From positions 1 through 31,536 of IMG/VR virus record IMGVR_UViG_3300045988_087472: a stretch of DNA of 31,536 bases; one strand, written 5' to 3'. This stretch comes from a virus (taxonomy: Duplodnaviria > Heunggongvirae > Uroviricota > Caudoviricetes). Under the pieces are notes generated by a model, which saw nothing but the letters and a program-made list of their open reading frames with translations, was not told where the DNA came from and searched no databases. Positions 5,694 through 6,508 of this stretch are shown here, in pieces (the stretch's first letter is position 1; each line of letters begins with the position of its first letter). The translations under genes were made by a program, and so were the position numbers.

Positions 5694-6182
5694 ATGAGTC
5701 TTTTGAATGACGTTCAGAAATTCATTGAAGCCCATCCGGGCTGTTCTTCCGGAGACATTGCGGATGCTTTTGCAGGTTACTCACGGCAGCGCGTTCTGCA
5801 GTCAGCAAGCAAGTTACGTCAGAGTGGGCGTGTGGCTCACCGTTGTGAAGGAGATACACGCAGACATTTCCCGCGCCTGACTGAGAGAGCGCAGGAGCCG
5901 GAACCACAACCAGTTCGTGAAACCAGACCTGTGCGCAATTTCTATGTCGGCACTAACGATCCCCGGGTGATTTTGTGCCTGACCCGCCAGGCTGAAGAAC
6001 TGGAGTCCAGGGGCTTATACCGTCGTGCTGCAACGGTGTGGATGGCGGCATTCCGTGAAAGCCACTCCCAGCCAGAACGAAACAATTTTCTGGCGCGTCG
6101 TGAGCAGTGCTTACAGAAAAGCAGCAAGCGCGCTGCATCGGGTGAAGAGTGGTATCTGTCAGGGAATTACGTGGGGGCGTAA
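5694..6182 (+). CDS. PerC-family transcriptional regulator-like protein (162 aa from the ATG)
   Basis: C-terminal motif LYRRAATVWMAAF...FLARREQCL resembles the PerC family signature as recalled; track start 5688 is GTG, ATG at 5694 has a G-rich SD. Confidence 0.55.
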   Translation: MSLLNDVQKFIEAHPGCSSGDIADAFAGYSRQRVLQSASKLRQSGRVAHRCEGDTRRHFPRLTERAQEPEPQPVRETRPVRNFYVGTNDPRVILCLTRQAEELESRGLYRRAATVWMAAFRESHSQPERNNFLARREQCLQKSSKRAASGEEWYLSGNYVGA

Positions 6183-6508
6183 TGACGACGTTAACTCAAT
6201 GCCAGCATCAGGTGCTGGATATGCTGATTTCTTACCAGAAAGAGCGTGGCTTTCCGCCAACCAATCAGGAGGTGGCAACCATGCTGGGATACCGTTCAGT
6301 GAATGCAGCGGTAGAGCATCTTCGTGCACTGGAGAAAAAAGGCGTCATCACGATAAAGCGTGGCGTGGCCCGGGGGATCACGCTTCATACCACAGTGAAG
6401 GACGACGACAGCGAGGCAGCCGGGATTATCCGCGCACTGCTTGCCGGTGAGGAAAACGCCAGACTGCGTGCAGCCCACTGGTTACATGAGAGGGGCCTGA
6501 AAGTATGA
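6182..6508 (+). CDS. LexA N-terminal DNA-binding-domain homolog lacking the S24 peptidase domain (108 aa)
   Basis: [68 protein letters not shown] aligns by eye to the E. coli LexA N-terminus; no Ser-Lys dyad region; ATG overlaps upstream stop (TAATG). Confidence 0.65.
   Translation: [108 protein letters not shown]

Follow-up and report, generated by a model that had tools for sequence, protein, structure and literature searches.

A stand-alone LexA-type DNA-binding domain protein encoded in the early-right operon of an SfV/SfII-like phage

The window (the whole 31,536-nucleotide stretch of DNA that was analyzed) is a temperate, SfV/SfII-like phage or prophage of Escherichia or Shigella in which a lambdoid regulatory region is joined with Mu-like tail genes. 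It carries, on the plus strand, a gene for a 108-amino-acid LexA-like protein. Residues 1 to 68 of this protein are a complete LexA winged-helix domain, whereas the peptidase domain of LexA is absent and a predicted helical hairpin stands in its place. The role proposed here, tentatively and at somewhat less than an even chance, is that of a RecA-insensitive, LexA-derived repressor that would act on SOS-like operators; a regulator with a diverged operator of its own is almost as likely.

The early-right operon and the LexA-like gene

Positions 1 to 25000 of the window, used as a 25-kb query, match phage vB_EcoM-689R6 at 97.6% identity across 84%, and SfV and SfII also match. The genes around the LexA-like gene are as follows.

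2892..3518, minus strand: CI-type prophage repressor (Pfam Peptidase_S24, E = 9e-28; HTH_3, E = 1e-10)
3740-4405, plus strand: cII-like gene
4402-4740, plus strand: orf112
4750-5691, plus strand: O-like replication protein
5688..6182, plus strand: PerC-like (YfdN-type) gene (Pfam PerC, E = 6.7e-9; PHROG 1324)
6182..6508, plus strand: LexA-like gene, a stand-alone LexA DNA-binding-domain protein of 108 aa, PHROG 362 (ORF, Pfam, PHROG)
6505..6894, plus strand: rusA, Holliday-junction resolvase (Pfam RusA, E = 1.2e-14; synteny)
6914-7711, plus strand: KilA-N protein
7713-8708, plus strand: DUF968 protein
8716-9474, plus strand: Q-like antiterminator

The LexA-like ORF runs from the ATG at 6182-6184 to the TGA at 6506-6508, giving the 108-aa product. 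Besides an alternative in-frame GTG at 6149, the alignments single out the ATG at 6182, which is the start in every homolog and aligns with Met1 of LexA, and a Shine-Dalgarno-like GGGGG run (6173-6177) lies 5 to 9 nucleotides before it. The stop codon of the PerC-like gene overlaps this ATG (TAATG, with one base common to TAA and ATG), and the TGA of the LexA-like gene in turn overlaps the ATG of rusA (ATGA). Both overlaps can be read directly from the sequence, and the position of the gene within an early-right operon, beside a PerC-like gene, agrees with the first-pass annotation. A promoter scan of the plus strand from about 3600 to 6895 found no sigma-70-like promoter. With no internal promoter upstream, the simplest reading is therefore that the LexA-like gene belongs to the pR transcript. 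Judging from this arrangement, RecA-stimulated cleavage of CI should switch on the rightward operon that carries the LexA-like gene.

The gene is under strong purifying selection in both of its parts, most of all in the DNA-binding domain: dN/dS calculated from 54 distinct intact alleles is 0.077 for the whole gene, 0.021 in the domain, and 0.166 in the tail. The protein matches PHROG 362 ("transcriptional repressor") along its entire length (E = 6e-58; residues 1 to 108 against positions 1 to 106 of the 106-position profile). Of 5426 complete E. coli genomes, 2231 carry DNA of the gene at 90 to 99% identity; PGAP annotates it in E. coli as "LexA family transcriptional regulator/protein." It is also carried by 51 phage records, including SfII, mEp460, Stx2a_1447, and Stx2c phages, and by more than 560 IMG/VR contigs; SfII lists it as "LexA DNA binding domain protein" and Stx2a_1447 as "repressor, lexA family." This family (SfII, SfV-like, mEp460, Stx2c, and Stx2a_1447 phages) is the same protein, found at 96 to 100% identity in many phages and prophages. 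Frameshifted or truncated copies occur occasionally in the databases.

More distant homologs were also identified. A search of 1.8 billion representative proteins yielded full-length relatives at 39 to 53% identity in which the domain and the hairpin are both kept, and in BFVD short stand-alone LexA-domain proteins are common across phages generally. A scan of species-representative genomes detected the gene in Shigella and Citrobacter only, apart from a match in a Bacillaceae assembly, on a low-coverage contig of 326 bp, that probably reflects contamination. No experimental paper on the enterobacterial LexA-like family was found in the searchable literature. The feature is already known from annotation, in SfII and other phages, in PGAP, and in PHROG 362, and its kind is already known from the characterized gp6 protein of GIL01 (PMC6182141); the novelty that the first-pass annotation had attached to it was overstated.

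Eighty close loci show the gene order cII, orf112, O, PerC, (dam), LexA-like, RusA, KilA-N, DUF968, (Q); the dam methylase gene precedes the LexA-like gene in about half of the close relatives and is absent in the window. Among distant relatives, the upstream neighbor changes and can be Dam, a C5 methylase, a replication protein, or a small ORF. Downstream, rusA follows, usually with a 4-nt overlap, then an antirepressor and/or DUF968, and then Q; rusA is kept as the downstream neighbor in relatives down to 40% identity.

A LexA winged-helix domain with a different C terminus

Four parts can be distinguished within the protein.

6182..6388, plus strand: winged helix-turn-helix domain, residues 1-69 (AlphaFold2 pLDDT about 87-90; Foldseek; dN/dS 0.021)
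6299..6337, plus strand: recognition helix, residues 40-52 (alignments; the S39 codon, 6296-6298, lies just upstream)
6389..6403, plus strand: acidic linker TTVKD, residues 70-74 (low confidence, pLDDT below 50 at residues 71-75)
6404..6490, plus strand: predicted helical hairpin in place of the LexA C-terminal domain, residues 75-103 (AlphaFold2, conservation)

A close match between the first 70 residues and the N-terminal domain of E. coli LexA had been noticed by eye, and it holds on formal alignment. The Pfam profile LexA_DNA_bind (PF01726) covers residues 1 to 65 with all of its 65 positions (E = 7.8e-19; 67.7 bits versus a cut-off of 23.7), phmmer against the PDB matches 1LEA, the LexA N-terminal domain (E = 4e-15), and BLASTP against E. 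coli LexA gives a gap-free alignment of residues 1 to 68 with 34 of 68 positions identical (50%; E = 1e-20). Profile and pairwise comparisons alike thus place the similarity far above chance. Two AlphaFold2 runs, with alignments of 27 close and 23 broader sequences, produced models with pLDDT of 82 to 84 and the same secondary structure in the domain, namely, helices at residues 6-22, 28-35, and 40-52 and strands at 56-58 and 66-68. The best Foldseek matches of the model are the LexA-DNA crystals 3JSO and 3JSP (rmsd of 1.0 to 1.1 Å), with 1.0 Å across 67 to 68 residues when the model is placed on the LexA of 3JSO.

The remainder of the protein differs from LexA. A Pfam search found no match to Peptidase_S24 in the protein, which ends at residue 108, and the TIGR00498 LexA equivalog model scores 66 bits versus a cut-off of 111, over profile positions 1 to 91 only. 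The protein accordingly falls outside LexA proper, lacking both the S24 domain with its Ser/Lys dyad and the conserved Ala-Gly site. Searched alone against the PDB, the C-terminal 40 residues retrieved no LexA, the best match (E = 0.7) being an unrelated helical hairpin, a tethering motif; the earlier view that the C terminus is unrelated to S24 agrees with both searches. Autocleavage of LexA is the work of the Ser119/Lys156 catalytic domain. Because this domain is absent, the LexA-like protein is, by the established LexA mechanism, incapable of autocleavage, and the resistance to RecA-stimulated cleavage predicted in the first-pass annotation would follow.

One pair of residues in the tail was considered as a cleavage or pseudo-substrate site. 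In full-length alignments, A88-G89 falls opposite A84-G85 of LexA at low confidence (LLAGE opposite VAAGE). The pair varies among close relatives, where ANEE and VGEE occur (G89 being replaced by Asn in some), and it is missing in distant ones; furthermore, the segment is predicted to be helical. The candidate was rejected on two grounds, the lack of any LexA among the matches of the tail alone and the lack of conservation of the Ala-Gly pair; on these alignments, this protein is unlikely to have a conserved cleavage site.

The tail is predicted to fold into two helices (residues 75-88 and 93-103; pLDDT about 89) that follow a disordered linker whose length differs among homologs. Three hairpin residues, A93, A97, and L101, show little or no variation in relatives down to 39% identity. 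The hairpin at residues 75 to 103 is a candidate dimerization or partner-binding module.

Operator recognition, SOS boxes, and competing explanations

Among the DNA-contact residues of LexA as cited in PMC13416735 from Knegtel 1995 (S39, N41, A42, E44, and E45), four of the five are kept in the LexA-like protein (S39, N41, A42, and E45), and E44 is replaced by Val. Within the close family, the recognition helix does not vary. In the short family as a whole, Glu is absent from position 44, where V, A, F, T, L, or Y is found instead; most full-length LexAs keep NAAE(E/D)HL, including Glu44. Helix positions 42 to 45 also differ between lineages of the short family. For example, the window has NAAVEH and a Citrobacter relative has NT(I/T)(A/T)GH, the flanking RusA and DUF968 proteins of the two being 90% and 88% identical, respectively, and the DNA divergence between them is limited to about 5740-6500. 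Such a pattern is typical of a specificity allele and not of a protein that tracks an invariant host SOS box.

The window itself contains no exact CTGT-N8-ACAG, and 17 one-mismatch sites versus 10.7±2.8 expected. Scanned with a position-weight matrix of 21 E. coli SOS boxes, it yields no credible box: the best score is 10.3 bits, compared with 13.3 for the weakest training box and 11.4 for the median shuffle maximum. An AT-rich site at 9883-9898 was examined as a decayed copy of a relative's box and rejected; it was treated as chance because the relative's box falls within the opening codons of a methyltransferase gene that the window lacks. A de novo search for operators among the inverted repeats at 2000-13000 found only terminators and the origin iterons inside the O-like gene.

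Related loci present a different picture. In an unbiased screen, seven divergent loci with the LexA-like gene were compared for every inverted repeat of 5 or 6 nt with a spacer of 0 to 14, and only one pattern, ACTGT-N8-ACAGT, recurred in at least four of the seven; this is the canonical SOS box. Strong boxes in close relatives occupy three recurrent places: inside one cI allele, in the gap that separates rusA from one allele of KilA-N, and where a methyltransferase moron begins. Phage SOS boxes include TACTGTATGTAAAAACAGTA and CACTGTTCATAAATACAGTA. At a threshold of 15 bits, 80 loci with the LexA-like gene (898 kb) contain 56 strong SOS sites in 41 loci (12 distinct site sequences, many at 21 to 27 bits), versus 8 copies of a single 15.3-bit site in 80 control lambdoid loci (797 kb) with a DLP12-type rusA and without the LexA-like gene, an enrichment that is a comparison of two clonal sets with no phylogenetic correction. 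In 39 of the 80 related loci, no box lies within 6 kb, and the LexA-like gene is still intact.

A distant subfamily (39 to 45% identity) has its own arrangement: SOS box, (recA or dinI homolog), a conserved 75- to 82-aa ORF, LexA-like, a 67-aa ORF, (RusA), DUF968, and Q. A canonical SOS box heads this cassette in all four of the loci with full upstream sequence (L091, L094, L096, and L099), and in some loci of the subfamily a dinI or recA homolog lies between the box and the LexA-like gene. A fifth locus, L100, has a split recA homolog and no canonical box directly upstream, its sole SOS-like match being about 1.4 kb further up. The upstream boxes of this subfamily stay canonical while the recognition helix of the LexA-like protein diverges; these boxes may therefore serve host LexA alone.

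How a RecA-insensitive repressor could work can be outlined from these observations. The N-terminal domain of LexA alone binds weakly and needs dimer contacts. In the LexA-like protein, the hairpin would supply the dimer contact normally given by the C-terminal domain, and the dimer would bind LexA-type palindromic operators with CTGT-like half-sites. The protein would be made only after CI, and hence host LexA, had been cleaved, or after infection. Because it would appear exactly when host LexA is destroyed, it could act as an uncleavable stand-in for LexA and, with RecA still active, silence some of the SOS-box promoters anew. Candidate targets would lie on the host chromosome, in related phages that bear SOS boxes, and in co-resident prophages with LexA-controlled antirepressors. 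Counted in favor of SOS operators are the homology and fold of the domain, the four retained contact residues out of five, selection, timing, the palindrome screen, the box enrichment, and the distant subfamily; counted against them are the E44V replacement, the variation of the helix, the box-less window, and the 39 of 80 box-less loci. On the sequence comparisons, occupation of SOS boxes by the LexA-like protein, as suggested in the first-pass annotation, is plausible.

Much of the same evidence bears on a regulator of the GIL01 gp6 type, in which the LexA fold is kept, a lineage-specific site is bound, and a phage or host promoter is activated or repressed, with the timing of Q, of lysis genes, or of moron genes as an example. 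This possibility deserves nearly the same weight as the SOS repressor. Its best precedent is gp6 itself, the only characterized stand-alone phage LexA homolog, which binds a non-LexA palindrome and activates a late promoter (PMC6182141). The replacement of E44 fits such a role, as does the switch at positions 42 to 45 between lineages whose neighboring genes are 88 to 90% identical; divergence confined to about 5740-6500 is what an exchange of phage specificity alleles would look like, and the window has no SOS box. However, the search for conserved palindromes turned up no alternative, the SOS box being the sole common one; S39, N41, A42, and E45 are retained in the lineage of the window; and SOS boxes with dinI or recA homologs accompany the gene in relatives.

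Three further explanations carry less weight. The protein could be a DNA-binding accessory of a recombination/nuclease cassette made up of RusA and the DUF968/HNH-like protein, for example, one that loads or restrains these enzymes on DNA. This is improbable, even though relatives from 96% down to about 40% identity keep the order of LexA-like, rusA, (antirepressor), DUF968, and Q, and do so with different replication modules, Q types, and genes upstream, in most cases with stop and start codons that overlap. Genes of the nin region often stay syntenic with no functional tie between them; in some loci (L099), RusA is missing or comes from another lineage; RusA and DUF968 both diverge more slowly than the LexA-like protein; and RusA works alone in vitro. 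A Rosetta-stone link to DUF968 was also considered: the lone fusion of a LexA DNA-binding domain to DUF968 (P0156) occurs in a decayed prophage, on just one contig, looks like a deletion, and was set aside as an artifact. It is less probable still that the protein is a dominant-negative partner that poisons dimers of host LexA, or a decoy for activated RecA. Both the dimer interface of LexA and its contact with the RecA filament (LexA-RecA filament entry 8TRG, which the phmmer search of the PDB lists) belong to the C-terminal domain, which the LexA-like protein lacks, and the tail alone has no similarity to LexA; the suggestion in the first-pass annotation that LexA dimers are poisoned is thus unsupported. 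Finally, the occasional frameshifted or truncated database copies might point to a functionless, decaying remnant of a captured lexA. That reading is effectively refuted by the selection analysis (dN/dS of 0.077 across the 54 intact alleles), and full-length conservation to 39% identity, tail included, and presence in 2231 of 5426 E. coli genomes also stand against it.

Relation to known LexA-type proteins and significance

Compared with E. coli LexA (1LEA and 3JSO), the LexA-like protein has the same winged helix-turn-helix fold at 1.0 Å, 50% identity over residues 1 to 68, and S39, N41, A42, and E45. It differs in lacking the S24 peptidase and dimerization domain and the conserved Ala-Gly site, in having Val at position 44, and in the predicted 34-residue helical hairpin that replaces the C-terminal domain. 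The setting of the gene differs as well: it is borne by a phage, in the early-right operon of a prophage, whereas LexA is under an autoregulated SOS promoter. The E. coli LexA cleavage fragment 1-84 is likewise a LexA DNA-binding domain freed from its C-terminal domain. This fragment keeps weak operator binding, and its removal by ClpXP is needed for full SOS induction. Fragment 1-84 is a degradation intermediate, whereas the LexA-like protein is a gene product that is stable and selected and has a C-terminal module of its own.

The closest characterized counterpart is GIL01 gp6, a truncated LexA homolog that activates the tectivirus late promoter P3, also repressed by host LexA, by binding a non-SOS palindrome that overlaps the -35 element of the late promoter (PMC6182141). 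Both are early phage proteins made up essentially of a LexA DNA-binding domain and lacking the cleavage domain, and gp6 coexists with phage promoters controlled by host LexA, as the LexA-like protein may in relatives that carry SOS boxes. Conversely, gp6 consists of the winged-helix domain only, comes from a tectivirus of Gram-positive bacteria, and has its origin in a Bacillus-type LexA, whereas the LexA-like protein has a conserved extra hairpin and a Gram-negative, lambdoid setting. The non-SOS operator and the activator role of gp6 are proven, whereas the LexA-like protein is known here from its sequence and predicted structure. Tectiviridae LexA-DNA-binding-domain proteins in BFVD match the LexA-like model only at the level of the fold (23 to 28% identity; E of about 3e-3), which fits an independent capture from another LexA, and the LexA-like protein and gp6 probably differ in origin.

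The value of the finding at present is modest, in that the LexA-like gene is catalogued and its existence would not surprise a specialist, yet the gene is very widespread. In the broadest form of the proposal, which we regard as doubtful, the protein would be an uncleavable LexA surrogate present in about 40% of sequenced E. coli, through which an induced prophage would re-silence the SOS regulon at a time when RecA is still activated, shutting down SOS functions of the host as well as LexA-controlled antirepressors and morons in rival prophages; the distant relatives would then be a phage-borne mini SOS module composed of an SOS box, a dinI or recA homolog, and the LexA-like gene. The SOS response is a driver of mutagenesis and persistence, of Shiga-toxin phage induction, and of the competition among prophages. 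If the protein binds SOS boxes, a very common prophage gene of E. coli and Shigella would reshape this response in a manner that RecA could not reverse. If, instead, it has an operator of its own, it would be the second independent case, after GIL01 gp6, of a captured LexA domain serving as a private phage regulator.

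The PerC-like and LexA-like gene block

When the window is compared with the Citrobacter relative (L004), the stretch at 5740-6500 forms a single block of low DNA identity (35-72%), which covers the LexA-like gene and the part of the PerC-like gene that encodes the C-terminal half of its product, and both of its flanks are 80-93% identical. Because this low-identity block is set between such similar flanks, the PerC-like and LexA-like genes appear, on sequence comparison, to have been exchanged as a unit. Approximately half of the related phages carry dam, which encodes an N6-adenine methyltransferase, between these two genes, for example, SfII (L001, 6581-7234). 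The window has no dam at the corresponding position (6180-6184), where the PerC-like gene runs straight into the LexA-like gene (TAATG); dam is likewise missing from phage 2H10, in which the same pair is contiguous.

SOS boxes and other sites around the gene

Strong canonical SOS boxes were identified in the close relatives at three recurrent places (L012:2198, L044:6767 and L012:10962, with equivalents in many of L002-L085).

Recurrent SOS box places in the close relatives
Place 1: within one allele of cI, in its coding region
Place 2: between rusA and one KilA-N allele
Place 3: across the initial codons of an N6/N4 methyltransferase moron that follows Q

The window carries none of the cI, KilA-N and methyltransferase moron alleles associated with these boxes; three other sites were noted in it.

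Sites in the window
5052-5114: iteron-like inverted repeats, among them GTCAGATTCTGAC / GTCAAAATCTGAC, within the O-like replication gene
9582-9603: strong terminator-like hairpin, ~110 nt after Q
9883-9903: AT-rich near-SOS sequence CTGAAATAATAAACAG, then ACAGACTGT, further on than the hairpin

The near-SOS sequence coincides in part with a promoter-like -10 that precedes the lysis genes, scores only 8.9 bits and is probably a chance occurrence. The hairpin fits a Q-antiterminated tR', and the repeats, which coincide with the repetitive peptide stretch DPSKSDASKS, probably mark the replication origin.

Duplicated, fused and distant LexA-like proteins

In the representative library, LexA DNA-binding-domain stretches occur twice within the same protein in several cases, at protein lengths of 140-350 aa (P0129, P0132, P0137, P0145, P0147, P0154, P0157, P0160 and P0161); such tandem duplication could substitute for dimerization. 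P0156 (L100:4001-4723; 240 aa) is a direct fusion of a LexA-like DNA-binding domain with the HNH-like half of DUF968, its C-terminal part. This fusion was found on just a single contig, from a prophage whose recA is split, and therefore probably arose by deletion. A 97% identical match to the E. coli phage gene in a Fredinandcohnia humi (Bacillaceae) assembly lies on a 326-bp contig with 0.88x coverage (L005, JBLKRX010000125.1) and most likely represents assembly contamination.

The distant subfamily (L091, L094, L096, L099 and L100) shares a cassette that consists of an SOS box (in L100, the only SOS-like match is ~1.4 kb further up), (a phage recA/dinI homologue), a 75-82-aa ORF, the LexA-like gene, a 67-aa ORF, (RusA), DUF968 and Q. 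The two ORFs that flank the LexA-like gene are both conserved in the cassette and have no Pfam match. In its make-up, this cassette resembles a miniature SOS module carried by the phage.
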